Assembly (NCBI GenBank): GCA_965249725.1 | Contig: OZ252251.1 | Location: 672,001 to 736,000, forward strand | Length of the DNA stretch: 64,000 bases | Origin: Longimicrobiales bacterium | GTDB lineage: Bacteria; Gemmatimonadota; Gemmatimonadetes; Longimicrobiales; Gaopeijiaceae | Direction: 5' to 3' | Part shown: positions 9,419 to 32,560 of the stretch, piece after piece | Layout: each line of letters starts with the position of its first letter | Position numbering within the stretch: position 1 is the stretch's first letter | Translations under genes and position numbers: made by a program | Notes under the pieces: model-generated | What the model was told of the DNA's origin: nothing | The model's database searches: none | The model's input: the letters and a program-made list of their open reading frames with translations, nothing else

Positions 9419-9621
9419 GGCTCCTTCACCTCTCCGGTACTTCGGGTCACTAACGGTACGGGCATCTGTACCTGTGGCACAGAGGTATCCCGGAGCCGTG
9501 GGTGAGAACCGGGACCCAGGGCATTGCAGGATCATTCGTCCCCGTAGTATGTCCCATGGGTCGGACGCTCGCCCGCCCCGGGCCTGAGACCGTTGGATTC
9601 CAAGTCGGCAAAGGAACGACC

Positions 9622-10836: not shown

Positions 10837-10959
10837 CTCGTCCCCACGAAGGCCTTTCCTATAGCGGGGCCAGGACCCGCTTACTACGTTGCTCGTCCGC
10901 CTCAATCGCTCGTATCAGTCGACACCGTACGATTGCCACACATGCGGGAGGAACCGCTC

Positions 10960-12306
10960 ATGTCGTACCCCCGAACCACCATCCTGGGCGCCGTTGCGGC
11001 CTTGGTTGCCTTCGCCGTCTTCGCCCCTACGCCCTCTGAGGCGCAGTGGAATGCGCTGGAGCGCGGAAGCGACAACATCGAAGTCCTCGGACATCTGCCC
11101 CTCGGCCCCGCGCTCAACGTCGCCGATATGGACGTCGAGCAGGAGCTGTCCCGTCCCTACGCCTACGTGGCTCGCATGGTCTACGCAGGCCAGGGGGTCA
11201 TGGGCATGGACGTCATCAGCATTGAAGATCCGTCGCAACCCGAGCTGCTCTACGAGTGGCGCATCGAGGAGCAGGACCTGCACCTCGGTCGAGGCGGCAT
11301 GGACGTCAAGCACTTCAAGTGGAATGATCGCTACTACGTGATCCAGTCCACCCAATTCGGGCAGGGTGGCCCGGATTCGGACATGGGCGGCGTCGTTCTC
11401 GACGTGACCGGTCTACCCGATGCATCGACGGTTCGTGAGGTCGCGCGAATCAGAGAGCCTCTCATGCCGGGTGGCTTCCACAACATCTTCGTCTACAAGC
11501 ACTCCGACGGGCGGGTGTTGTTGTTCGCAACAGTTTCAGGCGCCTTCGCGCAGGTTTACGACCTGGGCAAGCTGGTTGAAGGCGCCTCGTCCGAAGAGGC
11601 ACGCGCCGGCCGGGTCCCCAACCCCAGCTCGGACGAAGGAGGTGGACGGGGATATCACGACTTCTACGTCGGCTACCATCCAGACACCGATCAGGATCGG
11701 TTCTACGGCGGTGGCGGTGGTGGGTACTACATCTACAACGTCAGCGACCTTGAGGAGCCCGAGCTGGTGGTCACGCTCACGGGCGTCAGCGGTGTCGGTG
11801 GCGGCCACACGTTCACGCCTGGCCCGAACGGTCGCTACGTGGTGGCGGAGACGGAGTACGAGTTCGCACCGCTCAGAATCTTCGACCTGGAGCCTGCCCT
11901 GGAAGGGGAGGCCACGAACATCCGCCGACCCATCTCGGGTTGGACGGCCGACTACAAAAACTTGACCCACAATCACGAGATCCGGTGGCCGTTGGTCTTC
12001 GTGTCCGGCTATCTGGATGGTCTCCAGGTGTTCAGCCTCCAGGATCCGTACAATCCGGTCACGGTGGGCTACTACGACACCTACATCGGTCCGCGGTCCA
12101 CCGAGACCACCCCCGTATTCAACGGCGCATTCGGAATCGACGTCCGGAATGCGGACGGGCTGATCACGATCAGCGACATGAGCACCGGATTCTGGACGTT
12201 CCGCATGGATGGCTTCCAGGGCTGGAACGGAGCGCAGTGGGGCGTGCCGGACATCTCCAGCGCTCAGAAGTGGGATGAGCCCCTGAGGCGTCCCATCAGC
12301 CAGTAG
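10960..12306 (+). CDS. Secreted LVIVD-repeat beta-propeller, array copy 1
   Basis: RBS GAGG, signal peptide, FHNIF/YHDFY/GHTFT/HNHE motifs, C-terminal KWDEPLRRPIS. Confidence 0.85.
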   Translation: MSYPRTTILGAVAALVAFAVFAPTPSEAQWNALERGSDNIEVLGHLPLGPALNVADMDVEQELSRPYAYVARMVYAGQGVMGMDVISIEDPSQPELLYEWRIEEQDLHLGRGGMDVKHFKWNDRYYVIQSTQFGQGGPDSDMGGVVLDVTGLPDASTVREVARIREPLMPGGFHNIFVYKHSDGRVLLFATVSGAFAQVYDLGKLVEGASSEEARAGRVPNPSSDEGGGRGYHDFYVGYHPDTDQDRFYGGGGGGYYIYNVSDLEEPELVVTLTGVSGVGGGHTFTPGPNGRYVVAETEYEFAPLRIFDLEPALEGEATNIRRPISGWTADYKNLTHNHEIRWPLVFVSGYLDGLQVFSLQDPYNPVTVGYYDTYIGPRSTETTPVFNGAFGIDVRNADGLITISDMSTGFWTFRMDGFQGWNGAQWGVPDISSAQKWDEPLRRPISQ

Positions 12307-12357
12307 CGATAGCTGCAGGCCGCGTAACACCGCCGACCCTCTCCACGGAGTTGATGC

Positions 12358-13791
12358 ATGTCTGTTTCAGGTGGCCTCTCAGGTGTTCGCGTAGTCGGAC
12401 GCGGCCTTCGCCTTGCCGTTCACCTTGCGTGTACGCTGGCATGTACGCTGGCATGTGTGATGACAGTGCTCGGGACGCCCCGTGCCTCCGCGCAGGAGTG
12501 GACCGCCCTCGATCGGGGCAGTGAAAACATCGACGTGCTGGGCCACCTGCCGTTGGGCGGCCCGCTCAACGTGGGCGACATGGACGTGGAGCCGGAGGTT
12601 TCCCGCCCCTTCGCGTACGTCGGCCGCATGCGCTACGGCACGCCGGGACCCACGGGCATGGACATCATCAGCATCGAGGACCCGGACCGGCCCACGCTCC
12701 TCTACGAGTGGCGCATCGAGGATCAGGAGCTGCACACGGGACTCGGAGGCATGGACGTGAAGACGTTCAAGCTCGACGGGCGCTACTACGTGGTGCAGTC
12801 CCTTCAGTACGGCCAGGGCGGACCGGACTTCGACCTCGGTGCCGTGGTCTTCGACGTCACGGGTCTCCCCGACGCGTCGACCGTTCGTGAGGTGGCGCGG
12901 ATCCGTGAGCCGCTCCTACCTGGGGGCTTCCACAACATCTTCATCTACAAGCACTCCGACGGTCGGGCGCTCCTGTTCACGACGGTGAACGGCCCATCGG
13001 CGCACATCTACGACCTTGCGCGTGTCGTCGCGGGCGCCAGCGCGGAGGATGCACTAGTGGGTCGTGTGCCGATCCCGGATGCCGGCGGCGAGACCAGTCC
13101 CATCGGCGGCTATCACGACTTTTACGTCGGGTATCATCCCGATACGGACGAGGATCGCTTCTACGGTGGAGGTGCAGGCGGATACTTCATCTACGACGTG
13201 ACTGATCCGGCAGAGCCGGAGCTTCGGATCACGCTTACCGGCATTCGGGGCGTGCCGTTTGGGCACACCTTCACGCCCAGCCCGGACGGTCGCTACGTGA
13301 TCGCCGAGACAGAGTACGAGTTCGCTCCGCTGCGCATCTTCGATCTGCAGCCCGCCCTCGATGGCCAGACGACCAACATCAACCGCCCGATCGCAGGGTG
13401 GACGTCGGATTACCGGTATGTGGCCCACAACCACGAGGTTCGGTGGCCGTTGGTTTTTGTGTCCGGATACCTGGACGGCCTGCAGGTCTTCAACCTGCAG
13501 GACCCGACCGACCCGGTGACGGTGGGCTACTACGACACGTATATCGGGCCGCGAGCCACACTGAATCCAGACGGGGTCATGGGCGACTATGCCACCAGCC
13601 TTTTCAATGGGGCCTTCGGAGTGGATGTGCGGAACGAAGACGGCCTGATCCTGATCAGCGACTTCTCGACCGGCTTCTGGACGCTCCGCATGGACGGCTT
13701 CCAGGGCTGGAACGGAGAGCAGTGGGGCGTGCCGGATATCTCGAGCGAACAGAAATGGGACGAGCCGGTACGGCGGCCCATAAGCGAATAG
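12358..13791 (+). CDS. Secreted LVIVD-repeat beta-propeller, array copy 2
   Basis: Paralogue of copy 1 over its full length. Confidence 0.85.
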   Translation: MSVSGGLSGVRVVGRGLRLAVHLACTLACTLACVMTVLGTPRASAQEWTALDRGSENIDVLGHLPLGGPLNVGDMDVEPEVSRPFAYVGRMRYGTPGPTGMDIISIEDPDRPTLLYEWRIEDQELHTGLGGMDVKTFKLDGRYYVVQSLQYGQGGPDFDLGAVVFDVTGLPDASTVREVARIREPLLPGGFHNIFIYKHSDGRALLFTTVNGPSAHIYDLARVVAGASAEDALVGRVPIPDAGGETSPIGGYHDFYVGYHPDTDEDRFYGGGAGGYFIYDVTDPAEPELRITLTGIRGVPFGHTFTPSPDGRYVIAETEYEFAPLRIFDLQPALDGQTTNINRPIAGWTSDYRYVAHNHEVRWPLVFVSGYLDGLQVFNLQDPTDPVTVGYYDTYIGPRATLNPDGVMGDYATSLFNGAFGVDVRNEDGLILISDFSTGFWTLRMDGFQGWNGEQWGVPDISSEQKWDEPVRRPISE

Positions 13792-13819
13792 AATCTCAAC
13801 CCTAGCGGGAGCAGTAGAT

Positions 13820-15163
13820 ATGTCATCGTTCCGGTCCTGTGTAGTCGGCCTGGCCACGCTCGCCCTGATGGCGATCGTCGTGCCGGGGGCTTCGGCCCAG
13901 TGGACGGCCCTCAAGCGTGGTAGCGACAACATCGAGGTCGTCGCGCACCTCCCCCTCGGAGGTCGCGTCAGCGCAGCGGACACGGACATCGAGCAGGAGC
14001 TTGACAGGCCCTACGCCTACGTGGGGCGGATCTCTAACGGCGGCGGCGGCAAGGGCGTTGACGTCATTGATCTGTCAGACCCAGCGCACCCGGAGGTTCT
14101 CTACGAGTGGCGGATCGAAGATCCGGAGCTGCACCTCGGGTTGGGTGGCATGGACGTGAAGTACTTCAAGGTGGACGGCCGCTACTACGTGGTGCAGTCA
14201 CTCCAGTTCGGCCAGGGTGGTCCCGACTCCGACCTGGCTGCGGTGGTACTCGACGTGACTGATCTGCCCGATCCGTCCACGGTGCGTGAGGTGGCACGGA
14301 TGAGGGAGCCGCTTCTGCCGGGCGGCTTCCACAACATCTTCGTCTACAAGCACTCCGACGGGCGGGTGTTGTTGTTCTCCACGGTCAGCGGGCCCTTCGC
14401 CAACGTGTACGACCTGGGCATGATCGTGCAGGGCGCGGACATGGAGAGCGCGCTGGCGGGCCGGGTGCCCGTGCCGCAGGCCGCCCAAGGTGGCCAAGCG
14501 GGTGGGGGTTACCACGACTTCTACGTGGGCTATCACCCCGACACGGACGAGGATCGCTTCTACGGGGGCGGCACCGGAGGGTATTACGTCTACGACGTCA
14601 CCGACACGGAGGACCCCCAGCTCCGGATCAGCCTCACCGGTGCCCGAGGTGTAGCGCGGGGACACACCTTCACGCCCAGCCCTGACGGGCGATATGTGGT
14701 AGCCGAGACGGAGTATCAGTTCGCGCCGCTCCGTATCTTCGATCTGAAGCCCGCGCTCGACGGTGAGGTGACCAATATCAACCGGCCCATTGCGGGGTGG
14801 ACGGCCGACTTCAACAACCTCTCCCACAATCACGAAGTTCGCTGGCCGTTCGTGATCGTGTCGAGCTACCTGGACGGGATCCAGATCTTCAACCTGCAGG
14901 ACCCCACCAATCCGGTCACGGTGGGCTACTACGACACCTACATCGGGCCGCGCTTCACGGAGGATCTCAACCCGATCCTCAATGGCACGTTCGGCGTGGG
15001 CGTGCGCAACGCGGACGGGCTCATCATCGGGAGCGACTCCAGCACCGGATTCTGGGTCCTACGCATGGACGGCTTCCAGGGGTGGAACGGCGAGCAGTGG
15101 GGCATGCCGGACATCTCGAGCGCGCAGAAATGGGATGAGCCGGTCCGGAGGCCGATCAGCTGA
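13820..15163 (+). CDS. Secreted LVIVD-repeat beta-propeller, array copy 3
   Basis: Paralogue; same motifs. Confidence 0.85.
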   Translation: MSSFRSCVVGLATLALMAIVVPGASAQWTALKRGSDNIEVVAHLPLGGRVSAADTDIEQELDRPYAYVGRISNGGGGKGVDVIDLSDPAHPEVLYEWRIEDPELHLGLGGMDVKYFKVDGRYYVVQSLQFGQGGPDSDLAAVVLDVTDLPDPSTVREVARMREPLLPGGFHNIFVYKHSDGRVLLFSTVSGPFANVYDLGMIVQGADMESALAGRVPVPQAAQGGQAGGGYHDFYVGYHPDTDEDRFYGGGTGGYYVYDVTDTEDPQLRISLTGARGVARGHTFTPSPDGRYVVAETEYQFAPLRIFDLKPALDGEVTNINRPIAGWTADFNNLSHNHEVRWPFVIVSSYLDGIQIFNLQDPTNPVTVGYYDTYIGPRFTEDLNPILNGTFGVGVRNADGLIIGSDSSTGFWVLRMDGFQGWNGEQWGMPDISSAQKWDEPVRRPIS

Positions 15164-15180
15164 CTAACGGAGGATTACCG

Positions 15181-16518
15181 ATGTTGTTCAGAACACGCGC
15201 AGTCGCCGTATTCGCGGCGGCCGCCGCTGTCCTCATGGTCGCGGTCGGGTCCGCGTCGGCTCAGTGGACGCCACTGAAGCGAGGAAGCGACAACATCGAC
15301 GTGCTGGGGCATCTGCCGCTCGGAGGGCTGCACAGCGCCACCGACACCGACATTGAGCAGGAGCTCTCGAGACCCTACGCGTATGTCGGACGGAGCGTCA
15401 TCGGGCGGGGCGAGGGCCGGGGTGTCGATATCATCGACCTCTCCGACCCGGAGCGGCCGGGGCTGCTCTACTCGTGGCGGATAGAGGACGACGACGTCCA
15501 CATCGGGAGCGGCGGCATGGACGTGAAGCACTTCAAGGTCGATGGCCGCTACTACGTGGTGCAGTCACTCCAGTTCAGTCAGGGCGGGCCCGACGCGGAT
15601 ATGGGCGCGGTGGTGCTCGACGTGACAGGGCTGCCGGATCCATCGACCGTTCGCGAGGTAGCCCGGATCCGTGAACCCCTCCTGCCGGGCGGGTTCCACA
15701 ACATCTTCGTCTACCAGCACTCGGATGGGAGAGTGCTCCTTTTCACCACGGTGCGCGGGCCCAGCGCACACGTGTACGACCTTCGGAAGGTGGTGAACGG
15801 AGCCAGCGCGGAAGAGGCCCTTGCCGGGCGCGTGCCGGTTCCCGTGACCGGAGACACGCCGGGTAGTTATCACGACTTCTACGTGGGCTACCATCCCGAC
15901 ACGGATCAGGATCGCTTCTACGGCGGGGGCACGGGCGGCTACTACGTCTATAACGTCACCGACCCCGCTGACCCCGAGCTCGTCATAACGCTCACGGGGG
16001 TCCGAGGCGTTTCGTACGGGCACACGTTCACTCCCAGCCCTGACGGCCGCTACGCGGTGGCCGAGACGGAGTACCAGTTCGCCCCCCTCCGAATCTTCGA
16101 CCTGCAGCCGGCCCTGGACGGAGAGGCCGCCAATATCAACCGCCCGATCGCGGGCTGGACGGCCGACTACCGGAACCTGGTGCACAACCACGAGGTGCGC
16201 TGGCCGCTGGTGTTCGTATCCGGATACTTGGATGGCCTTCAGATCTTCAATCTGCAGGACCCCACGAATCCGGTGACCGTGGGCTACTACGACACCTATA
16301 TCGGGCCGCCGAGCCCGGTGCTGAACCCCGTATTCGGTGGGACCTTCGGCGTGGACGTGAGGAACGCGGACGGGCTCATCATCGTCAACGACTCGGGCAC
16401 GGGCTTCTGGACCTTCCGGATGGAAGGCTTCCAGGGATGGAACGGCGAGCAGTGGGGCATGCCGGACATCTCCAGTGCGCAGAAGTGGGACGAGCCGGTG
16501 CGGAGGCCCATAAGCTAA
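15181..16518 (+). CDS. Secreted LVIVD-repeat beta-propeller, array copy 4
   Basis: Paralogue; GGAGG RBS. Confidence 0.85.
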   Translation: MLFRTRAVAVFAAAAAVLMVAVGSASAQWTPLKRGSDNIDVLGHLPLGGLHSATDTDIEQELSRPYAYVGRSVIGRGEGRGVDIIDLSDPERPGLLYSWRIEDDDVHIGSGGMDVKHFKVDGRYYVVQSLQFSQGGPDADMGAVVLDVTGLPDPSTVREVARIREPLLPGGFHNIFVYQHSDGRVLLFTTVRGPSAHVYDLRKVVNGASAEEALAGRVPVPVTGDTPGSYHDFYVGYHPDTDQDRFYGGGTGGYYVYNVTDPADPELVITLTGVRGVSYGHTFTPSPDGRYAVAETEYQFAPLRIFDLQPALDGEAANINRPIAGWTADYRNLVHNHEVRWPLVFVSGYLDGLQIFNLQDPTNPVTVGYYDTYIGPPSPVLNPVFGGTFGVDVRNADGLIIVNDSGTGFWTFRMEGFQGWNGEQWGMPDISSAQKWDEPVRRPIS

Positions 16519-16616
16519 CGTGGCGCGGTTTTTTTTCGTCCCCTAGCTTGTCGAGCACGCAGAATCGATCCGTGCCGGACCGCACGGCGCTCAATCCATA
16601 GCAGGAGCACTCTCCA

Positions 16617-17957
16617 ATGCCACGCCCACGAACCGCCGTTCTCTGTGCCGTCGTTCTGGCGCTTCTCACACTACTGCCGGTCTCCGCGGTCGCCCAGGCG
16701 ACTGCACTGAATCGCGGAAGCGACAACATCGATGTTCTCGGGCACTTGCCGCTGGGCCCCGCCCTGAGCGTGTTGGACATGGATGTGGAGCAGGAGTTGT
16801 CCAGGCCGTATGCCTACGTGGCACGTGGTCGACTCGGGCCGGCTGGGCCGCGCGGGATGGACATCATCAGCATCGAGGATCCTGACCGCCCCGAGCTCCT
16901 GCACGAGTGGCGGATCGAGGATCAGGACCTGCATGTCGGGCCGGGTGGCATGGACGTGAAGTACTTCAAGGTGAACGGCCGTTACTACGTCGTGCAGTCG
17001 GTCCAGTTCGGGCAGGGAGGGCCGAACGCCGATGTCGGTGCCGTGGTTTTGGACGTGACGGGTCTCCCGGATCCGTCCACCGTGCGTGAGGTGGCCCGTA
17101 TCAGTGAGCCCCTCTCGCCTGGTGGCTTCCACAACATCTTCGTCTACAAGCACTCCGATGGTCGTGTGCTGCTTTTCGCGACGATCAACGGCCCGTATGC
17201 CCACATGTACGATCTGGGGATGGTCGTGTCAGGGGCCACTTCCGAGCAGGCGTTGGCCGGCAAGGTGCCCATCGCGAACGACGGCAATACGCCGGTCATC
17301 GTGGGCTACCACGACTTCTACGTCGGGTATCATCCGGACACGGATGAGGACCGCTTCTACGGTGGTGGTGGCGGTGGCTACTACGTCTACGACGTGAGCG
17401 ACCCGTCGTCGCCCGAGCTCCGCATCACGTTGACGGGAATCAGCGGAGTACCGTTCGGTCACACCTTCACCCCGAGCCCCGATGGACGGTATGTCGTTGC
17501 CGAGACGGAGTACGGCTTCGCGCCGCTCAGGTTCTTCGATCTGAAGCCGGCGCTGGACGGCGAGACCATGAACATTCGCCGGCCCATCTCGGGCTGGACA
17601 CCGAACTACAAGAACGTGGTCCACAACCACGAGGTGCGCTGGCCTTGGCTGTTCGTCTCGGGCTATCACGAGGGGCTACAGGTCGTGAACCTGCAGGACC
17701 CCACGGATCCGCAGACCGTGGGCTACTACGACACCTACATCGGACCCCACACCGAAGTGATCAACCCGATCTTCAATGGTGCGTTCGGGATCGACGTGCG
17801 GAACGAGGACGGCCTGATCCTGATCAGTGACATGAGCACCGGGTTCTGGACCTTCCGCATGGATGGATTCCAGGGTTGGAACGGTGAGCAGTGGGGCCAG
17901 CCGGATATCTCCAGTGTGCAGAAATGGGATGAGCCGGTGCGCAGGCCCATCAGCTAG
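16617..17957 (+). CDS. Secreted LVIVD-repeat beta-propeller, array copy 5
   Basis: Paralogue; AGGAG RBS. Confidence 0.85.
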   Translation: MPRPRTAVLCAVVLALLTLLPVSAVAQATALNRGSDNIDVLGHLPLGPALSVLDMDVEQELSRPYAYVARGRLGPAGPRGMDIISIEDPDRPELLHEWRIEDQDLHVGPGGMDVKYFKVNGRYYVVQSVQFGQGGPNADVGAVVLDVTGLPDPSTVREVARISEPLSPGGFHNIFVYKHSDGRVLLFATINGPYAHMYDLGMVVSGATSEQALAGKVPIANDGNTPVIVGYHDFYVGYHPDTDEDRFYGGGGGGYYVYDVSDPSSPELRITLTGISGVPFGHTFTPSPDGRYVVAETEYGFAPLRFFDLKPALDGETMNIRRPISGWTPNYKNVVHNHEVRWPWLFVSGYHEGLQVVNLQDPTDPQTVGYYDTYIGPHTEVINPIFNGAFGIDVRNEDGLILISDMSTGFWTFRMDGFQGWNGEQWGQPDISSVQKWDEPVRRPIS

Positions 17958-17994
17958 GAACAGAGTGTTGTCCATTCCAAAAGGAGGACCGTCC

Positions 17995-19329
17995 ATGTCG
18001 AACCGTCATCCACGCTATGCGGCCGCGGTTTCGACCGTATTCGCACTTCTCGTGCTCGTTGCAGCTCCCGTGTCCGGGCAGTGGACCGCCCTCAACCGGG
18101 GGAGCGACAACATGGAGGTGTTGGGACACCTCCCCCTGGGCCCCTTCCTGAACGTGTCGGACATGGACCTGGAGCAAGAGCTGTCTCGTCCCTACGCGTA
18201 TGTCTCCCGCATGGTATGGGGAGAGGGCGGTGCCAAGGGCATGGACATCGTCAGCCTCGAGGACCCTTCGCATCCCGAACTCATCTACGAGTGGCGGATC
18301 GAAGAACAGGATCTACACGTAGGGACCGGCGGCATGGACGTGAAGTACTTCAAGATTGCCGATCGTTACTACGTGGTGCAGTCGTTTCAATTCGGTCAGG
18401 GCGGTCCCGATTCGGACATGGGTGCGGTGGTCTTGGACGTGACGGGTCTCCCGGATCCATCAGCGGTTCGGGAGGTGGCCCGCATCCGAGAGCCGCTCCT
18501 GCCGGGTGGCTTCCACAACATCTTCGTCTATAAGCACTCCGACGGCCGGGTGCTGCTGTTCACGACCGTTTCCGGGCCCTACTCCCACGTCTACGATCTT
18601 GAGCGTGTGGTCGCCGGCGACATGGAAAATGCGCTGGTGGGTCGTGTGCCCGGTCCCGACCGCGAAGGTGGCGGTTCGGCCTATCACGACATCTACGTGG
18701 GCTACCATCCGGACACCGACCAGGACCGGTTCTACGGGGGCGGGACAGGTGGTTACTACATCTATGACGTCACGGACGTCGAGGCCCCCTCACTCGAAAT
18801 CAGTTTGACGGGGATCAGCGGGGTGGGCCGTGGTCACACGTTCACGCCGAGTCCCGACGGGCGCTACGCTGTGGCCGAGGTCGAGTACCAGTTCGCTCCC
18901 CTTCGGATCTTCGATCTACAGCCGGCCTTGGACGGTGAGACCACGAACATCCGTCGCCCCATCGCGGGCTGGACGGCGGACTACCAGAACCTGGTGCACA
19001 ATCACGAGGTTCGGTGGCCTTATGTGTTCGCTTCGTCGTACCTGGACGGACTCACGGTCTTCAACCTCCAGGATCCGTCCAATCCGGTGACGGTCGGCTA
19101 TTACGACACATATCTCGGAAAGCCGGGGCCCCGAAGCACCATTGTGGGTGGGGCGTTCGGCGTGGACATCCGCAATGAGGACGGCCTGATCGTCGTGAGC
19201 GACATGAACACGGGCCTGTGGACCTTCCGCATGGACGGTTTCCAGGGGTGGAGCGGCGACCAGTGGGGCGTGCCGGACATCTCGAGCGCCCAGAAGTGGG
19301 ACGAACCTCTGCGCAGACCGATCAGCTAA
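17995..19329 (+). CDS. Secreted LVIVD-repeat beta-propeller, array copy 6
   Basis: Paralogue; AAGGAGG RBS before ATG 17995. Confidence 0.85.
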   Translation: MSNRHPRYAAAVSTVFALLVLVAAPVSGQWTALNRGSDNMEVLGHLPLGPFLNVSDMDLEQELSRPYAYVSRMVWGEGGAKGMDIVSLEDPSHPELIYEWRIEEQDLHVGTGGMDVKYFKIADRYYVVQSFQFGQGGPDSDMGAVVLDVTGLPDPSAVREVARIREPLLPGGFHNIFVYKHSDGRVLLFTTVSGPYSHVYDLERVVAGDMENALVGRVPGPDREGGGSAYHDIYVGYHPDTDQDRFYGGGTGGYYIYDVTDVEAPSLEISLTGISGVGRGHTFTPSPDGRYAVAEVEYQFAPLRIFDLQPALDGETTNIRRPIAGWTADYQNLVHNHEVRWPYVFASSYLDGLTVFNLQDPSNPVTVGYYDTYLGKPGPRSTIVGGAFGVDIRNEDGLIVVSDMNTGLWTFRMDGFQGWSGDQWGVPDISSAQKWDEPLRRPIS

Positions 19330-19401
19330 CCATCACCCCATAGACATGCCCTCAACCCACTAGACATGCACGAATTCAACCTTCAGCGGGAGAAGCACTC
19401 A

Positions 19402-20739: not shown

Positions 20740-20804
20740 CGCCAGTCAAACGTCGGAACGCGACGGTCACGTTGCTCGGCTCCCCCGGACACGGCACCTG
20801 TGTT

Positions 20805-20833
20805 GCCCCGGGGGGAGTGCGGGAACCCACCCG
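20805..20833 (+). repeat. Direct repeat, left copy (CCGGGGGAGTGCGGG-ACCCACCC)
   Basis: Near-identical to 22629-22656; the pair brackets the inserted inverted gene. Confidence 0.75.
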
Positions 20834-20954
20834 TTATACGCAACGGCAGGTAGACTCTGGGTTGATAGGTAACAGGAGGTTACGGGGTGAACGGCGGCCT
20901 AGGGCGCGGCAAACGAACCTGCGACGGACTGATGGAGCTACGCCAAGTCGAGCG

Positions 20955-22409: not shown

Positions 22410-22494
22410 GGGCACTCCCCGGACTAGACCGTTGTGAATGTCCGGGTTCGGGGAGCGCAAGCAGAACGACGTTGAAGGCCGACTCAGCAAGGTC

Positions 22495-22628
22495 GCCTAA
22501 CAAGCTGGTTTGCACGAACTCGCATGCGCTCGTTCGCCCTTCGGGTAACGCGCCGCTGGTCACTGCGCTTGCCTTCGCAAGCTCGTGGCCTGTCTCGCGG
22601 CGCGCTCGCGAACCAGACTCCGTTCGCC
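22495..22628 (+). mobile_element. attC-like (integron cassette recombination) site, degenerate
   Basis: GCCTAAC...GTTCGCC ends, CTGGTTTGC/GCGAACCAG L boxes, nested stems GCGCCGC/GCGGCGC, GGTCAC/GTGGCC, GCTTGC-CTTC-GCAAGC; 134 bp. Confidence 0.6.
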
Positions 22629-22656
22629 GCCCGGGGGAGTGCGGGCACCCACCCCG
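22629..22656 (+). repeat. Direct repeat, right copy
   Basis: Matches 20805-20833. Confidence 0.75.
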
Positions 22657-22805
22657 ACGTTCTCCGAATCGTTCCCCCTCGGACCGCTGCCCGGGCCCGC
22701 CCCGTTGGCGGGTTTTTCGACGGCCCCGTAGGTTGTGGGCCACGCTTGTTTCAACAGGACGCGCCGCTCAGCCTGGCGCATCGACTTCAGCGGGAGGCAC
22801 CGCTC

Positions 22806-24155
22806 ATGCTCTACACTCGGCCAACCCTCATAGCGACGGCGTTCGCCCTCGCGGCGTTGATCGCCACGGCCGTGGCTCCCGTTTCGGCCCAGTGGACTCC
22901 GTTGAGCCGCGGGAGTGACAACATCGAGGTGCTCGGGCACCTCCCTGTGGGTCCCGCTCTCAGCGTCTCGGACATGGATGTGGAGCAGGAGCTGTCCCGT
23001 CCCTACGCTTACATGAGCCGCATGGCCTATGGCGGCGAAGGGCCCATGGGCCTCGACATCATCAGCATCGAGGACCCGGGGAATCCGCAGATCCTCTACG
23101 AATGGCGGATCGCCGACCGCGACCTCCACTCGGGTAACGGGGGGATGGACGTGAAGTACTTCAAGGTGAACGGCCGCTATTACGTGGTGCAGTCGACACA
23201 GTTCGGCCAGGGTGGTCCGGACTCGGACATGGGCGCCGTAGTGCTCGACGTCACGGGTCTGCCCGATCCGTCCACCGTGCGTGAGGTCGCCAGGCTCCGT
23301 GAGCCGCTGCTGCCCGGCGGCTTCCACAACATCTTCGTCTACAAGCACTCGGATGGCCGAGTGCTGCTGTTCGCCACCGTCAGTGGGCCGTTCGCCAACG
23401 TGTATGACCTGGGCAAGGTGGTTCAGGGGGCATCCGCCGAGGAGGCGCTCGCCGGACAGGTTCCCAACCCGCAATCTCAGGCCGCCGGCGGCGGACGAGG
23501 GTACCACGACTTCTACGTCGCCTACCATCCGGATACCGATGAGGACCGCTTCTACGGAGGTGGCGGTGGCGGGTACTACATCATCGACGTCTCCGATCTG
23601 TCGGATCCACAGGTCCGCATCACGCTGACGGGCGTCCGCGGAGTGGGCGGGGGCCACACGTTCACCCCGAGCTCCGACGGCCGCTACGTCGTCGCCGAGA
23701 CAGAGTATCAGTTCGCGCCCCTCCGGTTGTTCGACCTCAAGCCTGCTCTCGATGGAGAGGTCACCAACATCAACCGCCCGATCTCGGGCTGGACCGCGGA
23801 CTGGAACAACCTGGTCCACAATCACGAGGTCCGTTGGCCCTACGTGTTCGTGACCGGTTATCTGGACGGACTCCAGGTCTTCAACATGCAGGACCCCGCG
23901 AATCCGCAGACGGTTGCCTATTACGACACGTACATCGGAGTTCGCGATCCCGAGCGTTGCCAGGAGTGCAACGGTGCGTTCGGGGTCGACGTTCGCAACG
24001 CCGACGGACTCATCGTGATCAGCGACATGAGCACTGGCCTGTGGACGTTTCGCATGGACGGCTTCCAAGGTTGGAACGGAGAGCAGTGGGGGATGCCCGA
24101 CATCTCCAGCGCTCAGAAGTGGGATGAGTCGGTACGGCGGCCGATTAGTGATTAG
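22806..24155 (+). CDS. Secreted LVIVD-repeat beta-propeller, array copy 8 (CQEC loop)
   Basis: Paralogue; GGAGG RBS before ATG 22806. Confidence 0.85.
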   Translation: MLYTRPTLIATAFALAALIATAVAPVSAQWTPLSRGSDNIEVLGHLPVGPALSVSDMDVEQELSRPYAYMSRMAYGGEGPMGLDIISIEDPGNPQILYEWRIADRDLHSGNGGMDVKYFKVNGRYYVVQSTQFGQGGPDSDMGAVVLDVTGLPDPSTVREVARLREPLLPGGFHNIFVYKHSDGRVLLFATVSGPFANVYDLGKVVQGASAEEALAGQVPNPQSQAAGGGRGYHDFYVAYHPDTDEDRFYGGGGGGYYIIDVSDLSDPQVRITLTGVRGVGGGHTFTPSSDGRYVVAETEYQFAPLRLFDLKPALDGEVTNINRPISGWTADWNNLVHNHEVRWPYVFVTGYLDGLQVFNMQDPANPQTVAYYDTYIGVRDPERCQECNGAFGVDVRNADGLIVISDMSTGLWTFRMDGFQGWNGEQWGMPDISSAQKWDESVRRPISD

Positions 24156-24231
24156 CCGAAGCCGCTCCTCTATCGAGCACTCGTCCATAAAGATATATCA
24201 CAGAAGCACTTACAGCAGGAGCACACGGTTC

Positions 24232-25581
24232 ATGTCACACCATCGGTCAAGTACGGTAGCGACGGCTTTTGCCGTCGTAGCTCTCGTCGCACTCGCCGCG
24301 GCGCCGGTCTCTGCGCAGTGGACCGCCATGAAGCGCGGTAGCGACAACATCGAGGTCATCGGCCACCTGCCGCTGGGGCCGGCCTTGAGTGTTTCCGATA
24401 TGGATGTGGAGCAGGAGTTGTCCCGTCCGTATGCCTATGTGTCGCGAATGCTCTACGGTGTCACCGGCCCCAAGGGCATGGACATCATCAGCATCGAAGA
24501 CCCGGCCAACCCCGAGATCATCTACGAGTGGCGGATCGAAGAGCAGGATCTTCATCTGGGCCGAGGCGGCATGGATGCCAAGCACTTCAAGATCGGCAAC
24601 CGCTACTACGTGGTTCAGTCCACGCAGTTCGGCCAGGGCGGCCCCAATTCAGACATGGGCGCCGTGGTCCTTGATGTGACCGGACTGCCGGACCCGGCCA
24701 CGGTCCGAGAGGTCAACCGAATCCGGGAGCCTCTGCGTCCCGGTGGCTTCCACAACATCTTCATCTACAAGCACTCTGATGGCCGAGTACTTCTGTTCGC
24801 GACGGCGGCCGGGCGGGTCGCCTTGATCTACGACCTCGCTCTGGTGGTGGATGGTGCGGACGCCGAAGCGGCCCTCGTCGGGGAGGTTCCGATCCCCAAT
24901 CAACCCGAGGGCCAGGACAACAGGAGTTATCACGACTTCTACGTCGGCTACCATCCGGACACCGATCAGGACCGGTTCTACGGGGGTGCCGGGGGCGGCT
25001 ACTACATCTATGACGTGACGGATCCGGCGAATCCCAACCTCGAAATCACCCTTACGGGGATTCGCGGGGTGGAGTGGGGTCACACATTCACGCCCAGCCC
25101 GGACGGTCGCTACGTGGTGGCCGAGGCCGAGTACCAGTTCGCACCGCTCCGTATCTTCGACCTGAAGCCGGCTCTGGACGGCCAGACGACCAACATCAAC
25201 CGCCCGATCTCAGGCTGGACGGCGGACTACGACAACCTGGTGCACAACCACGAGATCCGGTGGCCCTGGATGTTCGTGACGGGCTATGTGGACGGCCTTC
25301 AGGTCGTAAACCTCCAGGATCCGACGAACCCCGTGACAGTCGGCTACTACGACACGTACCTCGGTGTCAAAGACCCGACCCGGTGCCAGGAGTGTAACGG
25401 GTCCTTCGGAATCGACGTCCGCAACGAAGACGGACTCATCGTCATGAGCGACATGAGCACCGGCCTCTGGACTTTCCGCATGGACGGCTTCCAGGGTTGG
25501 AGCGGTGAGCAGTGGGGTATGCCGGACCTGTCGAGTGCCCAGAAGTGGGACGAGCCGGTGCGGAGGCCGATCAGTCAGTAG
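24232..25581 (+). CDS. Secreted LVIVD-repeat beta-propeller, array copy 9 (CQEC loop)
   Basis: Paralogue; start ATG 24232. Confidence 0.85.
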   Translation: MSHHRSSTVATAFAVVALVALAAAPVSAQWTAMKRGSDNIEVIGHLPLGPALSVSDMDVEQELSRPYAYVSRMLYGVTGPKGMDIISIEDPANPEIIYEWRIEEQDLHLGRGGMDAKHFKIGNRYYVVQSTQFGQGGPNSDMGAVVLDVTGLPDPATVREVNRIREPLRPGGFHNIFIYKHSDGRVLLFATAAGRVALIYDLALVVDGADAEAALVGEVPIPNQPEGQDNRSYHDFYVGYHPDTDQDRFYGGAGGGYYIYDVTDPANPNLEITLTGIRGVEWGHTFTPSPDGRYVVAEAEYQFAPLRIFDLKPALDGQTTNINRPISGWTADYDNLVHNHEIRWPWMFVTGYVDGLQVVNLQDPTNPVTVGYYDTYLGVKDPTRCQECNGSFGIDVRNEDGLIVMSDMSTGLWTFRMDGFQGWSGEQWGMPDLSSAQKWDEPVRRPISQ

Positions 25582-25714
25582 GAAACTCAACAAATCATGC
25601 ACGCCGGCTGTCTATATATACTGGCGAGGTTCCTGACGCCTTGGTAGATTACGTGGACGTCGGCGACAGCGCTGATCGTACGTGGCAAATCATCTAAAGT
25701 TGGAGAGATCGCCC

Positions 25715-27064
25715 ATGCAACGCTCCCGGACCGGCATCCTCGCGGCTGCCATCCTTACAGTTCTCGCTACCAGCATGCCCGCTGATGCGTCTGCGCAAGA
25801 GATGAACGCGCTCACGCGTGGCAGTGACAATATCGAGGTGCTAGGGCATCTCCCCCTCGGACCCGCCCTAAACACGTCGGACATGGACGTTGAGCAGGAG
25901 ATGTCCCGTCCTTATGCCTACGTCGGTCGGATGGCATACGGTGGCGTTGGCGTGAAGGGCATGGACATCATCAGCATCGAGGATCCGTCGAATCCGGAGA
26001 TTCTGTACGAGTGGCGCATCGAGGACCAGGATCTCCACCTGGGCCTGGGCGGGATGGACGTGAAGCACTTCAAGTGGAACGACCGCTACTACGTGGTGCA
26101 GTCGCTCCAGTTTGGTCAGGGTGGACCGGACGCGGACCTCGGCGCGGTAGTGCTCGACGTCACAGGTCTTCCCGATCCGTCCACGGTGCGTGAGGTCGCG
26201 CGAATCCATGAGCCGCTGATGCCGGGTGGTTTCCACAACATCTTTATCTATAAGCACTCGAGTGGTCGGGTGCTGCTCTTCACGACCATCGGAGGACCCT
26301 TTGCTCAGATCTATGACCTGGGCACGCTCGTCGAGGGTGGCTCCACTGAGGATGCGCGGGCCGGCCGGGTGCCGAACCCGCAGTCCCAAGAGACCGGCGG
26401 TAACGGCGGGTACCACGACTTCTACGTCGGATACCATCCGGACACCGATGAAGACCGCTTCTACGGCGGCGGGCGCGGTGGTTACTACATCATCGACGTT
26501 ACGGATCTTTCGGATCCGCAGGTTCGCATCACCCTGACGGGCGTCAGCGGAGTGGGCGGTGGTCACACGTTCACGCCGAGCCCCGACGGCCGGTACGTGG
26601 TTGCCGAGACCGAGTACGAGTTCGCTCCGCTCCGGTTCTTCGACCTGCAGCCGGCGCTGGACGGCGAAACGACCAACATTCGTCGGCCCATCTCCGGCTG
26701 GACATCGAACTACAAGAACCTCGTGCACAACCACGAGGTCCGTTGGCCCTGGCTGTTCGTCTCGGGCTACCTGGACGGACTCCAAGTCGTGAACCTCCAG
26801 GATCCGACCAATCCGCAGACCGTGGGGTATTACGACACTTACATCGGTGCGCGCCGCGCGGATCGTACGCCCGTGTTCAACGGCGCGTTCGGGATAGACG
26901 TGAGAAACGCGGATGGGCTAATATTGATCAGTGATATGAGCACGGGGTTCTGGACCTTCCGAATGGACGGCTTCCAGGGCTGGAACGGCGAGCAGTGGGG
27001 AGTCCCCGACATCTCCAGCGCTCAGAAGTGGGATGAGCCCGTGCGTCGTCCAATAAGCGAGTAG
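25715..27064 (+). CDS. Secreted LVIVD-repeat beta-propeller, array copy 10
   Basis: Paralogue; start ATG 25715. Confidence 0.85.
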   Translation: MQRSRTGILAAAILTVLATSMPADASAQEMNALTRGSDNIEVLGHLPLGPALNTSDMDVEQEMSRPYAYVGRMAYGGVGVKGMDIISIEDPSNPEILYEWRIEDQDLHLGLGGMDVKHFKWNDRYYVVQSLQFGQGGPDADLGAVVLDVTGLPDPSTVREVARIHEPLMPGGFHNIFIYKHSSGRVLLFTTIGGPFAQIYDLGTLVEGGSTEDARAGRVPNPQSQETGGNGGYHDFYVGYHPDTDEDRFYGGGRGGYYIIDVTDLSDPQVRITLTGVSGVGGGHTFTPSPDGRYVVAETEYEFAPLRFFDLQPALDGETTNIRRPISGWTSNYKNLVHNHEVRWPWLFVSGYLDGLQVVNLQDPTNPQTVGYYDTYIGARRADRTPVFNGAFGIDVRNADGLILISDMSTGFWTFRMDGFQGWNGEQWGVPDISSAQKWDEPVRRPISE

Positions 27065-27067
27065 ATC

Positions 27068-27613
27068 ATGAACATCTTTATTCCGATTGCGGTGGCGGTG
27101 CTGGGTGTAGGGCCCAACGGGGCTCAGGCGGCCCCGGCCATGTGTTTCGCCGCCGACAACCAGCCTCCCGTCTTCTATCGGGTGGAGCTCATCACCACGA
27201 AGCGAGTCCCGGGGTCGGGAATGGCGACCGGCGCGGGCGAGATCACGTTCACGCCCTCTCCGTTCGCGGTGAACCTCACGCCTGAGGGTGATTACCTGCG
27301 TGACGTGAACATCACCGTGAACGGTCTCAAGCCGGCTGCGAGCGGCAACTACGTCGCTTGGGTGACGACCCCCGCATTGGACCGCACCACGCGGCTCGGC
27401 GTGCTTGATGCCGACGGAACCGCCAGCGGACAGATCGCCTTCAACAAGTTCCTCCTCGTGATCTCTCTCGAGGAAGACGACGGCTCGTCCTCGGAGCGTT
27501 GGAAGGGACCCATCGCGCTGAGGGGCATGTCCCGGAGTGGGGCAATGCACACCTCTGCGGGGCACGGACCCTTCGTGGTCGAGAACTGCACGGGGTACGG
27601 CTTCAACGGGTAA
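27068..27613 (+). CDS. Secreted hypothetical protein (RskA C-terminal-like beta-sandwich pattern; MHxxxxH tail)
   Basis: 3 bp after copy 10; signal-like N-terminus; GLKP..YVAW..LGVL..FLLVISLE..GPIAL pattern. Confidence 0.65.
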   Translation: MNIFIPIAVAVLGVGPNGAQAAPAMCFAADNQPPVFYRVELITTKRVPGSGMATGAGEITFTPSPFAVNLTPEGDYLRDVNITVNGLKPAASGNYVAWVTTPALDRTTRLGVLDADGTASGQIAFNKFLLVISLEEDDGSSSERWKGPIALRGMSRSGAMHTSAGHGPFVVENCTGYGFNG

Positions 27614-27634
27614 GGAGTCAGCCCGTTCACAACG

Positions 27635-27676
27635 ACATCCCCGTCGGTCTCGGTCATCCGTGGCCGACGGGGATGT
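27635..27676 (+). terminator. Stem-loop, probable intrinsic terminator or processing hairpin
   Basis: ACATCCCCGTCGG / CCGACGGGGATGT 13-bp inverted repeat followed by TTCGCTTT. Confidence 0.6.
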
Positions 27677-27701
27677 TTCGCTTTCAACCGAAGTGATACG
27701 C

Positions 27702-29453
27702 ATGCGCCAGACCAATAGCCGACGGTCCGCTGGGCCGCGGAGATCTTACAGAATCCTAGGGGCCACGGTACTCGGCCTCTCCGTTCTCACCGGCCAGTTA
27801 CAGGCCCAGGAGATGGACCACAGCCAGCACGAGATGGAGATGGGTGACAGCCTGATGTGGACCATGCCTCCTCATCCCGTGTGGATGAACCCGGCCATGA
27901 TGGCGCCGTTCATGGGGATTCTCCCCGACGTCGAGCCGTTCATGCCTGGCTGGGAACTGGACATCATGACGTTGCCGGTCGCGAAGGCGCCCGAGGTGGT
28001 CCAGCTCGCATCAGGGGACACGCTCCGACTCGATGGCGGGATCCTACACGGAATGGTGGGCAGCCGGATGCTCAAGGTGTACGGGTTCAACGGCCAGTTC
28101 CCCGGACCGACGCTCAAGGTGCCCCAGAACGCGTCAATCACGGTGGAATTCACCAACAACATCGACTTCGCGACCACCCTGCGTTGGCACGGGGTGAGGG
28201 TGGAGAACGAGTACGACGGCGTGCCGGGCCAAACGCAGAGGCCGGTCCGCGTCGGGGCGACCTATACCGCGGAAGTCACGTTCCCGGATGCGGGCGCATT
28301 CTGGTATCATCCGCACCAGCGCGGGTACATCGCGCAGGATCTGGGTCTCTACGGTGCGATCCTCGTGGACTCGCCCGATCCCGACTACTACGCGCCCGCC
28401 AACTCCGAAGAGGTGCTAATCCTCGATGACGCCCTCATGACCGCGACGAACTGGGCTCCGTTCGGCCTGGAGGCCCCGACGAATGCTCTCATGGGGCGTT
28501 TCGGCAACGTGCTCCTGGTCAATGGACGTCCCGGCTTCAGGAAGGACGTCAAGAAGGGCGACGTCGTGCGGCTGCACCTGACCGACGCCTCGAACACCAA
28601 GAACTACAATCTCAGGGTCGAGGGTGACGTCCCGATGAAACTCGTTGCCGGAGACTTGAGCCGGTATGAGCACGAGCAGATGGTGTCCAACGTGATCATC
28701 GCTCCCGGGCAGCGGTACACCGTGGACACCAGGTTCGCCGAGTCGGGCGAGTACGCGCTCACCAACCGGATCACGGCCGTCGATCACTGGATGGGAGAGT
28801 ACTTCTATCAGGTGGATACGCTCGGTGTGTTCGTCGTCTCCGATGAGGAGACCGATCAGGACTACGGCGCGCAGTTCGCAGAGCTACGCACCAACGATGA
28901 CGTCGTGGCCGAGTTCGCGGCCGTGCGCGCCCAGGCGGGTCGCCAGGTCGATGAGGAACTCGTGCTGTCGCTCAAGGTCGGCGAGTTGCCGATCCCCGTC
29001 ATCATGATGATGGAGATGGATACTCTCTTCTATCCTCCGGTCGAGTTCAACGATGCCATGCCTATGATGAACTGGCTCTCCACGGGCATCGACGTCATGT
29101 GGCTCATGCACGAGCCCTCGCCCGGAGTGTCGCCTCGGGACCTCGGGCCGGCGGTCGGCTGGCGGTTCAAGCAGGGCGACATCGTCAAGATTAGGGTGTT
29201 CAATTCCCACGACTCGTGGCACCCCATGAGCCATCCGTTGCACCTGCACGGTCAGCGGTTCGCAGTGATCGAGCAGGACGGTGTGCAGACGGACAACCTG
29301 GTGTGGAGGGACACCATCCTGATTCCGGTGGGCACCACCATGGATCTTATGGTGGAGATGTCGAATCCCGGCACGTGGATGTTCAACTGTCAGATTCCGG
29401 AGCACGTGGGATCCGGCATGTCGATGAATTTCACGGTGGATCCGGTCAACTAG
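27702..29453 (+). CDS. Multicopper oxidase homologue with degenerate T2/T3 ligands
   Basis: FNGQFPGPTL, RWHG, WYHPH, HPLHLHG, WMFNCQIPEHVGSGM; Met/His-rich N-terminus. Confidence 0.88.
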   Translation: MRQTNSRRSAGPRRSYRILGATVLGLSVLTGQLQAQEMDHSQHEMEMGDSLMWTMPPHPVWMNPAMMAPFMGILPDVEPFMPGWELDIMTLPVAKAPEVVQLASGDTLRLDGGILHGMVGSRMLKVYGFNGQFPGPTLKVPQNASITVEFTNNIDFATTLRWHGVRVENEYDGVPGQTQRPVRVGATYTAEVTFPDAGAFWYHPHQRGYIAQDLGLYGAILVDSPDPDYYAPANSEEVLILDDALMTATNWAPFGLEAPTNALMGRFGNVLLVNGRPGFRKDVKKGDVVRLHLTDASNTKNYNLRVEGDVPMKLVAGDLSRYEHEQMVSNVIIAPGQRYTVDTRFAESGEYALTNRITAVDHWMGEYFYQVDTLGVFVVSDEETDQDYGAQFAELRTNDDVVAEFAAVRAQAGRQVDEELVLSLKVGELPIPVIMMMEMDTLFYPPVEFNDAMPMMNWLSTGIDVMWLMHEPSPGVSPRDLGPAVGWRFKQGDIVKIRVFNSHDSWHPMSHPLHLHGQRFAVIEQDGVQTDNLVWRDTILIPVGTTMDLMVEMSNPGTWMFNCQIPEHVGSGMSMNFTVDPVN

Positions 29454-29467
29454 GAGCGATCCGCTTC

Positions 29468-31903: not shown

Positions 31904-32048
31904 GTCTCGCACTCCTCGTAGGGATGGGGTCTAAATCTCGAAAAGCGGGAGGGATGACGCCATGGGTCTGTACGACATCTTCTTGCTCCTCGCCACTGCG
32001 GTTGGCACCTTACTTGCCGATCGTCTCTCATATCAGGAAACGAACCAC

Positions 32049-32498: not shown

Positions 32499-32560
32499 AA
32501 CCGAGGCGAACGGATGCCCCAGAGCGGGGTGACGAACGCTTCCTGAGAGAAGGAGTCAGC

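Follow-up and report, generated by a model that had tools for sequence, protein, structure and literature searches.

Gene content of the locus

The DNA analysed in this study, hereafter the window, is a stretch of 64,000 nucleotides from contig OZ252251.1 of a Longimicrobiales bacterium (phylum Gemmatimonadota), and the system of interest within it is an array of ten genes for secreted beta-propeller proteins, directly followed by the genes of a small secreted protein and of a multicopper oxidase (MCO) homologue. All ten propeller paralogues are intact and lie on the plus strand at window positions 10960-27064, with open frames of 445-477 amino acids (aa), typically about 445 aa. They form a tandem array of ancient origin and preserved order, in which the first gene of a three-gene envelope module is expanded, and the ancestral module is one with a single propeller gene. 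Among the loci examined, the ten-gene array of the window is the longest.

Features of the locus (window positions, strand, identity, basis):
10960-12306, plus: propeller paralogue 1, first array position (signal peptide, open frame, all His motifs)
12358-13791, plus: propeller paralogue 2 (open frame, alignment)
13820-15163, plus: propeller paralogue 3 (open frame, alignment)
15181-16518, plus: propeller paralogue 4, the copy used for the model (AlphaFold2 model)
16617-17957, plus: propeller paralogue 5 (open frame, alignment)
17995-19329, plus: propeller paralogue 6 (open frame, alignment)
19402-20739, plus: propeller paralogue 7 (open frame, alignment)
20955-22490, minus: interrupting gene, Big_2 and Amidohydro_2 (Pfam and NCBIfam)
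22809-24155, plus: propeller paralogue 8 (open frame, alignment)
24232-25581, plus: propeller paralogue 9 (open frame, alignment)
25715-27064, plus: propeller paralogue 10, last position, abutting the small-protein gene (open frame, alignment)
27068-27613, plus: small secreted protein, 181 aa, beginning three bases past copy 10 (model, tail motif)
27537-29453, plus: open reading frame of the MCO homologue, likely start ATG 27702 (Pfam Cu-oxidase_3, Cu-oxidase_2 and Cu-oxidase)
29468-31912, minus: FG-GAP_2 repeats and a true choice-of-anchor B domain (TIGR04312, 428.9 bits)

In the MAFFT alignment of the ten copies, every N-terminus carries a hydrophobic leader with an A-x-A motif before QW, the motifs FHNIF, YHD[FI]Y, GHTFT and HNHE occur in ten of ten copies with no variation, and protein identity to copy 1 is 70-80%. 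Ten intact, co-oriented and secreted paralogues with these four motifs had been described in an earlier, sequence-only reading of the window, together with a downstream MCO and a small protein, which ends in MHTSAGHG, and all of these elements were recovered at the positions listed above. For the MCO, the ATG at 27702 is taken as the likely start, since a longer frame opening with GTG would overlap the small-protein gene. The array is discontinuous, as the gap between copies 7 and 8 is occupied by the minus-strand gene, whose frame opens with 30 residues from the N-terminus of a Ser/Thr kinase and continues with a lipoprotein-like leader. The arrays of loci L037 and L038, which are orthologous to that of the window, have no such insertion, and the interrupting gene is probably not part of the system.

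Age, selection and orthology of the array

Pairwise DNA identity among the ten copies is 69-76%, i.e. the copies are 24-31% different. Over the 45 pairs, synonymous divergence (dS) has a median of 1.22 and is thus saturated, and the ratio of nonsynonymous to synonymous divergence (dN/dS) has a median of 0.14 with a range of 0.085-0.21, which denotes purifying selection. It can be concluded from the DNA identity, the saturated dS and the low dN/dS that these are old paralogues and not collapsed strain variants.

Tree building by maximum likelihood (FastTree with LG+gamma; 137 sequences and 448 profile columns; root at the genome's own most divergent copy) placed the ten window copies within one 34-tip clade (support 0.98), which also contains the arrays of four other genomes, namely L037 (6 genes), L038 (7 genes), L040 (4 genes) and L039 (2 genes). 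Within this clade the copies group by rank with the genes of the other arrays, first with first and last with last, at supports of 0.97-1.0. Copy 1 groups with the first genes of L037, L038, L039 and L040 (support 1.0), and copy 10 with the last genes of L037, L038 and L040 (0.97). Between these ends, orthologues were identified for copy 2 (gene 2 of 7 in L038; 1.0), copy 3 (gene 2 of L037 and gene 3 of L038; 1.0), copy 5 (gene 4 of L038 and gene 2 of L039; 0.99), copy 6 (gene 3 of L037, gene 5 of L038 and gene 2 of L040; 1.0), copy 7 (L042; 1.0), copy 8 (gene 4 of L037 and gene 6 of L038; 0.99) and copy 9 (gene 5 of L037 and gene 3 of L040; 1.0), and copy 4 is the sister of the copy-3 group (0.98). 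Positional orthology of this kind implies that the array is older than the split of these genomes and that its order was kept with differential loss. A recent dosage amplification in the style of metallothionein arrays is ruled out by the saturated dS together with the positional orthology, and the old, ordered retention argues for ten retained specialisations and not for dosage.

All 30 bins of positions 10500-29900 are represented, at 95% identity or more, in Logan contigs that come from four runs, each of a different study. Their pieces bridge several junctions, e.g. 18501-20397 and 27008-29566, and at least 87% of the sampled words of the 5.2-kb stretch 24232-29453 (copies 9-10, the small-protein gene and the MCO) are present in runs of five studies. 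An artificial tandem of strain variants, created by the assembly, could be suspected from the fact that no single public contig spans the whole array, but the depth of divergence among the copies, the ordered orthologous arrays of 2 to 7 genes in four other genomes and the independent contig coverage of every part, several junctions included, all speak against it, and its probability is negligible.

Propeller fold and predicted histidine ring

The AlphaFold2 model of copy 4, computed from a 53-sequence alignment, has a predicted local distance difference test score (pLDDT) of 92.5 and a predicted template modelling score of 0.89, and its 28 strands make up seven four-stranded blades. Comparison with 48,161 chains by VIA-align gave Z of about 29-31 to dozens of WD40-type or seven-bladed propellers, which supports the fold and singles out no relative. 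Blades were assigned by reading the strand list against the LVIVD pattern, whose repeat consists of the C strand, the DP..P loop and the D strand. With this assignment, H107, H173, H231, H281 and H335 (copy 4 numbering) are each the first residue of the innermost strand, or at most two residues before it, in five blades, and D55 and D392 hold the matching place in the remaining two. In general propeller topology such innermost-strand starts encircle one mouth of the central channel, and it can be presumed from the strand topology of the model that the five His and two Asp ring the channel mouth in this manner.

Conservation of these positions is very high. Among the 45 full-length copies of the genome, H107, H231, H281 and H335 are present in 45 of 45 and H173 in 44, and at least 43 copies retain H107, H173, H180, H231, D232, H281, H335 and E338 along with many Asp, Asn, Tyr, Arg and Trp residues. 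Behind the ring lies an invariant second shell comprising H180, D232, H337, E338, N174, N336, Y178, Y234, R340 and W341. Homologues in other phyla are still 68-88% identical. The propellers also have a family-specific Trp-rich tail and carry no C-terminal anchor or sorting signal. Four of the ring His and D232 are common to the choice-of-anchor B domain (hhalign 97.1%, E 5.5e-11, 342 columns), and since the HN, HD, H and HN motifs align between the two, the ring is older than the propeller family.

Variation among the ten copies is concentrated elsewhere. Column entropy is 0.99 in the D-A loops and 0.83 in the B-C loops, as against 0.27 in the A-B loops and 0.63 in the C-D loops, so that top loops (D-A, B-C) differ from bottom loops (A-B, C-D) with 0.94 versus 0.51 (Mann-Whitney p = 4e-4), where the designation of loops as top rests on the topological assignment. 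Peak variability is seen in the loops leading into His-bearing strands (residues 222-225, 278-279, 331 and 378-381) and in one B-C loop (73-79). The sequence-only reading had envisaged one chemistry with many specificities, and the placement of the variation, mostly in loops around the predicted His ring, fits that proposal and is compatible with a common centre behind differing entrances.

A separate observation concerns the variable loop ahead of blade 7, at about residues 380-390, where copies 7, 8 and 9 carry an RC(P/Q)EC motif. Cys is absent from this loop in the other seven copies, and the motif could be a paralogue-specific disulfide or an extra metal ligand.

Small secreted protein

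In the model of the small protein, residues 35-155 form a beta-sandwich core with pLDDT > 90, and the tail of residues 159-181 is disordered (< 50). Cu,Zn superoxide dismutase (SOD), SOD-like proteins and domain 2 of the copper chaperone for SOD (CCS) account for 13 of the 16 top rows in VIA-align (Z 8.8-6.6), and the three best SOD superpositions have Z of 8.8, 8.7 and 8.3 over 101-106 aligned residues. Weak Foldseek matches, at E of about 0.01-0.06, comprise SOD1, CCS domain II and the periplasmic Cu/Fe proteins Tp34, HftA, P19 and FetP. The tail RGMSRSGMMHTMAGHG...NC is nearly invariant, being kept in 35 of 36 aligned homologues, and H161 and H166 within it are the only conserved His of the protein, so that the His ligands of Cu,Zn-SOD are not matched.

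The modelled protein would resemble CCS in having a SOD-like sandwich (Z 8.8 to SOD1 and 6.9 to domain 2 of yeast CCS) followed by a disordered Met/His/Cys tail. The similarity is at the level of the fold only, with 14-20% identity, and unlike CCS the small protein is periplasmic, has no Atx1-like domain and bears a tail motif MMHTMAGHG in place of the CXC of the CCS tail. On these grounds it is regarded as a candidate periplasmic copper chaperone or adaptor. RskA_C (Pfam PF10099), an Atlas lead for this protein with a score of 0.86, has a cut-off of 29.4 bits; the small protein reaches 14.9 bits (E 0.034) and a homologue 12.7.

Multicopper oxidase homologue

The MCO homologue is of the CopA/CueO type and scores above the Pfam cut-offs for Cu-oxidase_3 (109.1 bits), Cu-oxidase_2 (82.8) and Cu-oxidase (70.5). 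It shares with CopA and CueO oxidases the three cupredoxin domains, the Met-rich N-terminal stretch after the leader and the type-1 ligands, whereas its trinuclear set is incomplete and its scores remain far below the equivalog cut-offs for CueO (NF008205, 133.7 versus 525 bits) and CopA (TIGR01480, 111 versus 478.95 bits). Motifs were compared with those of 13 other sequences (12 usable) and of 79 MCO genes from related loci. The first copper motif reads RWHG instead of HWHG and the last one NCQ instead of HCH, while HPxHxH and all four type-1 ligands, including Cys, His and Met, are intact and five of the eight trinuclear-cluster His are retained. By the usual ligand assignment, we take the RWHG/NCQ combination to be the loss of one type-2 and two type-3 ligands. 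The oxidase had been called atypical from its sequence, and the replacement of three of eight trinuclear-cluster His gives that description its substance.

The RWHG/NCQ variant is found in all three large MCO homologues of the genome, one of which shares a continuous 716-aa frame with a small-protein domain as a fusion. The 79 MCO genes, which stem from 75 loci, divide into nine of the RWHG/NCQ variant and 70 with HWHG, and 12 are fused to the small domain; the last motif was legible in all but two of them, the variant of L041 (contig end) and the HWHG gene of L076. The nine variants belong to L037-L041, L043, L045, L047 and L053. Eight of these loci fall in the clade of the ten window copies, and the propeller of L047 lies outside it in the tree. 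The variant MCO accompanies all Gemmatimonadota arrays (L037, L038, L039, L040 and the window), and therefore the loss of trinuclear ligands and the multiplication of propellers took place in one and the same lineage.

The genes that come after choice-of-anchor B, at 31962-33205 on the plus strand, encode a mono-haem cytochrome c with a Cytochrome_CBB3 domain and a secreted protein that is rich in Cys and has a weak DUF1554 match. The Cytochrome_CBB3 protein could be an electron partner of the type-1-only oxidase variant.

Linkage of the three genes

Within the same genome, the three large ones among four Cu-oxidase_3 matches directly adjoin a propeller-family gene, and all four small-protein homologues abut one. 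All three genes were found together in nine of nine genomes from three taxonomic families, in four arrangements: propeller, small protein and MCO in this order; small protein, MCO and then the propeller or propellers; MCO divergent from propeller and small protein; and propellers convergent on MCO and small protein. In 10 of 11 MCO loci (five genomes) the MCO is either directly preceded by the small domain or fused with it.

Scanning a single genome of each species for the best matches to copy 4 yielded 75 loci with the closest relatives of this copy, labelled Gemmatimonadota/Longimicrobiales, Rhodothermales and Gammaproteobacteria. The small-protein gene is present in 69 of them and an MCO in 67, in the order propeller, small protein, MCO, and the conserved linkage to the MCO that had been surmised from the window alone is thus strong elsewhere. 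Among the eight loci with no MCO, L042, L046, L054, L089, L101 and L109 are on short contigs or at a contig edge. The full-length ones are L090, with a small-protein gene but no MCO match, and L092 (labelled Acidobacteriota), with neither. The earlier wording that the propellers feed into the MCO may be apt as judged from gene order.

In 12 loci a second, divergent and fused small-MCO gene lies upstream of the propeller, which is thereby flanked by two oxidases (L058, L061, L064, L065, L069, L070, L072, L074, L076, L078, L081 and L084).

Among 201 sampled genomes of the phylum, 63 have a propeller match at E <= 1e-30 (eight candidates per genome scored) and 101 a small-domain match at E <= 1e-10, a tally that includes the unpublished genomes G097, G057 and G157. 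Hand comparison of the tables showed that all 63 propeller-positive genomes are also positive for the small domain. Counted by hand among the matches listed, propeller and small-protein matches are no more than 3 kb apart in about 59 of the 62 propeller-positive genomes that remain when the window's genome is set aside, the exceptions being G188, G040 (5.6 kb) and G043.

Family membership and known relatives

The propeller family comprises 5,040 cluster representatives at E <= 0.001, and no Pfam model (ten copies) or NCBIfam model (three copies tested) passes its cut-off on the propellers. The LVIVD repeat (Pfam PF08309, gathering cut-off 20.2 bits) reaches only 17.4 and 19.2 bits in copies 5 and 7 and gives no match at E <= 0.01 in eight of ten copies. 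Choice-of-anchor B (NCBIfam TIGR04312, a 364-position domain with a cut-off of 100 bits) scores 38.2, 42.2 and 47.2 bits in the three copies tested. Both belong to the same homologous superfamily as the propellers, in the case of choice-of-anchor B by the hhalign comparison given above, which involved the domain at 29468-31912; the propellers differ from it in having the Trp-rich tail and no C-terminal anchor. We know of no function for choice-of-anchor B. SBP56/methanethiol oxidase (Pfam PF05694) matches none of the ten copies at E <= 0.01. Within the literature covered, the search returned no functional study of the propeller family or of LVIVD proteins, and nothing on choice-of-anchor B or on a multicopper oxidase with a beta-propeller in Gemmatimonadota. 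With no family model above its cut-off and no functional paper, no characterised family was found that explains the propellers.

The only solved relative found by sequence is Sb-PTE, a haloalkylphosphorus hydrolase (phosphotriesterase) of Sphingobium sp. TCM1 (PDB 5hrm/5ioj). It is matched by the A2 profile at E 3e-6 over four short stretches or repeat segments only (HMMER), an earlier A1 profile having given only a 25-residue repeat match against the PDB sequences, and 5hrm is also the first-ranked Foldseek match of the copy-4 model (E 7e-11, 16% identity). Like Sb-PTE, the propellers are secreted, have the seven-bladed fold and contain LVIVD-like repeats. Sb-PTE reportedly has a binuclear metal centre in its seven-bladed propeller, as the title of a paper has it. 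This centre holds manganese, and the enzyme has no known link to an MCO.

Copper-dependent propellers form the second term of comparison. The CuZ site of nitrous oxide (N2O) reductase, thiocyanate dehydrogenase and SBP56/methanethiol oxidase share a seven-bladed propeller with blade His in a ring at its hub, and have genes for dedicated copper chaperones nearby. Their likeness to the propellers described here may be taken as an analogy only, and the CuZ ring consists of seven His, as against the five His and two Asp of the present ring. N2O reductase, thiocyanate dehydrogenase and SBP56 are not among the Foldseek and VIA-align matches listed (50 rows), which excludes nothing, and N2O reductase is not among the three PDB sequence matches of the propeller profiles.

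Wider genomic context and neighbouring genes

The genome carries 45 full-length propeller copies in 18 loci, one of them with an internal stop, which together occupy about 1.4% of its DNA. SusC/SusD genes lie beside three of the 18 loci (L003, L004 and L016), and L002 has a TonB-dependent receptor with no SusD match; small outer-membrane barrels also occur beside these four loci. In G127, a genome of the same class, a first look returned 108 family candidates, of which 8 were scored, versus 63 in the window genome, and therefore the expansion of the family can be larger still.

In the relatives with a canonical MCO, co-oriented genes 5' of the propeller encode a TonB-dependent receptor (26 of 75 loci), a DUF5916/CBM9-like protein of outer-membrane type (31 of 75), a protein of about 440 aa with a weak match to the CehA/McbA metallohydrolases (28 of 75) that is far under the cut-off (32 versus 80 bits), and a HupE/UreJ_2 metal permease (13 of 75). 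None of these genes is found upstream in the window locus. As exemplified by L049:5464-9805 and 25-30 related loci, the upstream genes, propeller, small protein and MCO may constitute a seven-gene import and processing operon.

Directly upstream of the window array, at 9502-10836 on the plus strand, is a gene for a DgaE/SelA-like pyridoxal phosphate enzyme (TIGR01437, 147 bits, below the cut-off). The protein has a twin-arginine-like leader, and the location is unusual for this cytoplasmic enzyme family. This gene was considered as a counterpart of the conserved protein of about 440 aa and rejected (BLASTP E 0.22). On the other side, the choice-of-anchor B gene occupies the same convergent position in L037, L039, L040 and L049.

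The contrast between ten intact copies and many broken genes elsewhere in the window had been read as a sign of selection. Some window genes are indeed out of frame, but intactness is weak evidence beside dN/dS because the broken genes may be indel errors in a three-contig assembly. A surface protease with CARDB, PPC and Big_2 domains (38962-42508, plus) changes frame near 41.9 kb and has its HExxH-bearing end in another frame. A GAF-PAS-HisKA kinase (46030-47445, minus) has no ATPase domain, and the last residues of that domain open the response-regulator frame (region 45404-47445). Both breaks may be frameshifts or assembly indels, and split PALP (L003) and LtrA (L014) genes elsewhere in the genome resemble them.

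Further along the window, a 1771-aa protein (48205-53520, plus) combines leucine-rich repeats, PKD-like and Calx-beta domains, an SWM repeat and three fn3 domains with a long C-terminal part. The 50-54 kb stretch has a G+C content of 73-74% versus about 64% around it, and an IS110-family transposase is located at 57043-58065.

Interpretation and alternatives

We favour, at somewhat less than even probability, the reading that the propellers are periplasmic metalloenzymes whose ring-bound centre is probably copper, that they are served by the small protein and the oxidase, and that the copies are specialised by their entrance loops. In such a scheme each propeller leaves the cytoplasm through its Sec-type signal peptide and has the seven-bladed fold, and the ring of five His and two Asp would hold a bi- or multinuclear metal centre, most likely of copper, with the same chemistry in every copy. 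As the loops at the channel mouth differ, the copies would differ in the substrate that they accept. The small protein would either hand over copper through its flexible tail or dock the oxidase, whose part would be to hold the metal or the enzyme in the proper redox state. Because the oxidase of the window clade lacks three trinuclear ligands and has kept its blue-copper site, it is more likely to be an electron or copper carrier than an O2-reducing oxidase. The points counted for copper are the MCO domains, the Met-rich leader, the predicted SOD/CCS-like fold and the conserved tail. The analysis establishes the propeller fold, the invariance of the ring positions, purifying selection, the synteny, the degenerate oxidase motifs and the age and order of the array, whereas metal binding, the choice of copper, catalysis and the tasks of both partners are inferred. 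A bolder version, which we judge unlikely, would have the propellers as a new class of periplasmic copper-cluster enzymes, metalated by a CCS-like chaperone of SOD fold and wired to O2 or the respiratory chain via a CopA-type oxidase, with the array clade using a type-1-only carrier that serves up to ten substrate-specialised propellers.

Several observations weigh against the favoured reading. The sole characterised relative is a manganese hydrolase and not a copper redox enzyme, and five His with carboxylates are no less suited to a binuclear hydrolase than to a copper cluster. The ring itself is placed by strand topology only. The SOD/CCS-like match of the small protein is middling (Z 8.8), with no Foldseek match at E <= 0.001, and the core columns of its A3 alignment hold no invariant or near-invariant His. 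Since the 75 loci represent one orthologous subfamily in many related genomes, their counts are not independent. Of the 45 genomic copies, 35 are outside the array, and only two of these abut an MCO (L005 and L010); the rest are unlinked to one, many lying near SusC/SusD, TonB-dependent receptors, peptidases, amidases and amidohydrolases. In addition, 38 sampled genomes have the small domain, mostly in MCO fusion frames, and no propeller at E <= 1e-30, which implies that the small-MCO pair works in the absence of the propeller too.

The strongest competing explanation is that the propellers are binuclear (Mn, Zn or Fe) periplasmic hydrolases like Sb-PTE, degrading imported organic nutrients, e.g. 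esters, phosphoesters or amides. We consider this possible but on the whole rather improbable. Sb-PTE stands alone as a solved relative by sequence and heads the Foldseek matches, and a ring of His and carboxylates is typical of binuclear hydrolases. The SusC/SusD genes at three of the 18 loci and the TonB-dependent receptor at a fourth, the peptidases, amidases and amidohydrolases nearby, and the protein with a CehA/McbA match upstream in 28 of 75 loci would likewise suit imported substrates. Set against these are the 16% identity to Sb-PTE and a CehA/McbA match far under its cut-off. The MCO and the small protein would be only loosely connected to a hydrolase, oxidising a released phenol or thiol or supplying oxidised metal, and this explanation gives no reason for a copper oxidase and a Met/His-tailed protein to be kept beside the propeller through four arrangements.

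If the propellers were instead non-enzymatic metal binders or shuttles of the periplasm, for TonB-dependent metal acquisition or copper tolerance, the ten copies would represent capacity or different metal complexes. The upstream receptor, DUF5916 and HupE/UreJ_2 genes of the canonical-MCO relatives, the CopA/CueO type of the oxidase with its Met-rich stretch, and, for the small protein, a Met/His tail of Cu(I)-like kind and weak Foldseek matches to P19, FetP and HftA are in keeping with this, but the transporter genes are all missing from the window locus, the numerous invariant residues close to the ring that are not ligands and the 68-88% cross-phylum identity resemble an active site, and old, individually kept copies are unlike a dosage amplification. 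We hold a shuttle function to be unlikely. A role in surface adhesion or structure, with the conserved His being structural, corresponds to the usual annotation of LVIVD proteins, and both the description of LVIVD repeats in cell-surface proteins (PMC2447325) and a preprint treating an LVIVD protein as an attachment factor lean this way. It is nevertheless very improbable, as the propellers have no anchor or sorting signal, and His at the same position in five blades, a dN/dS of 0.14 and cross-phylum identity at the level observed are not expected of adhesins.

Overall, the window adds to this family a ten-gene array with positional orthology and entrance-loop variation, a small protein of predicted SOD/CCS-like fold, and an oxidase lineage that has lost trinuclear ligands. 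The propeller family is large and unusually conserved for a secreted protein, with no Pfam or NCBIfam model above cut-off, and its constant association with a chaperone-like protein and a copper oxidase opens a concrete experimental route. If the centre is indeed copper, the propellers would be a new kind of copper enzyme in the abundant Gemmatimonadota of soil and sea; if they are hydrolases, they would make up a major unrecognised nutrient-scavenging family tied to TonB-dependent import.

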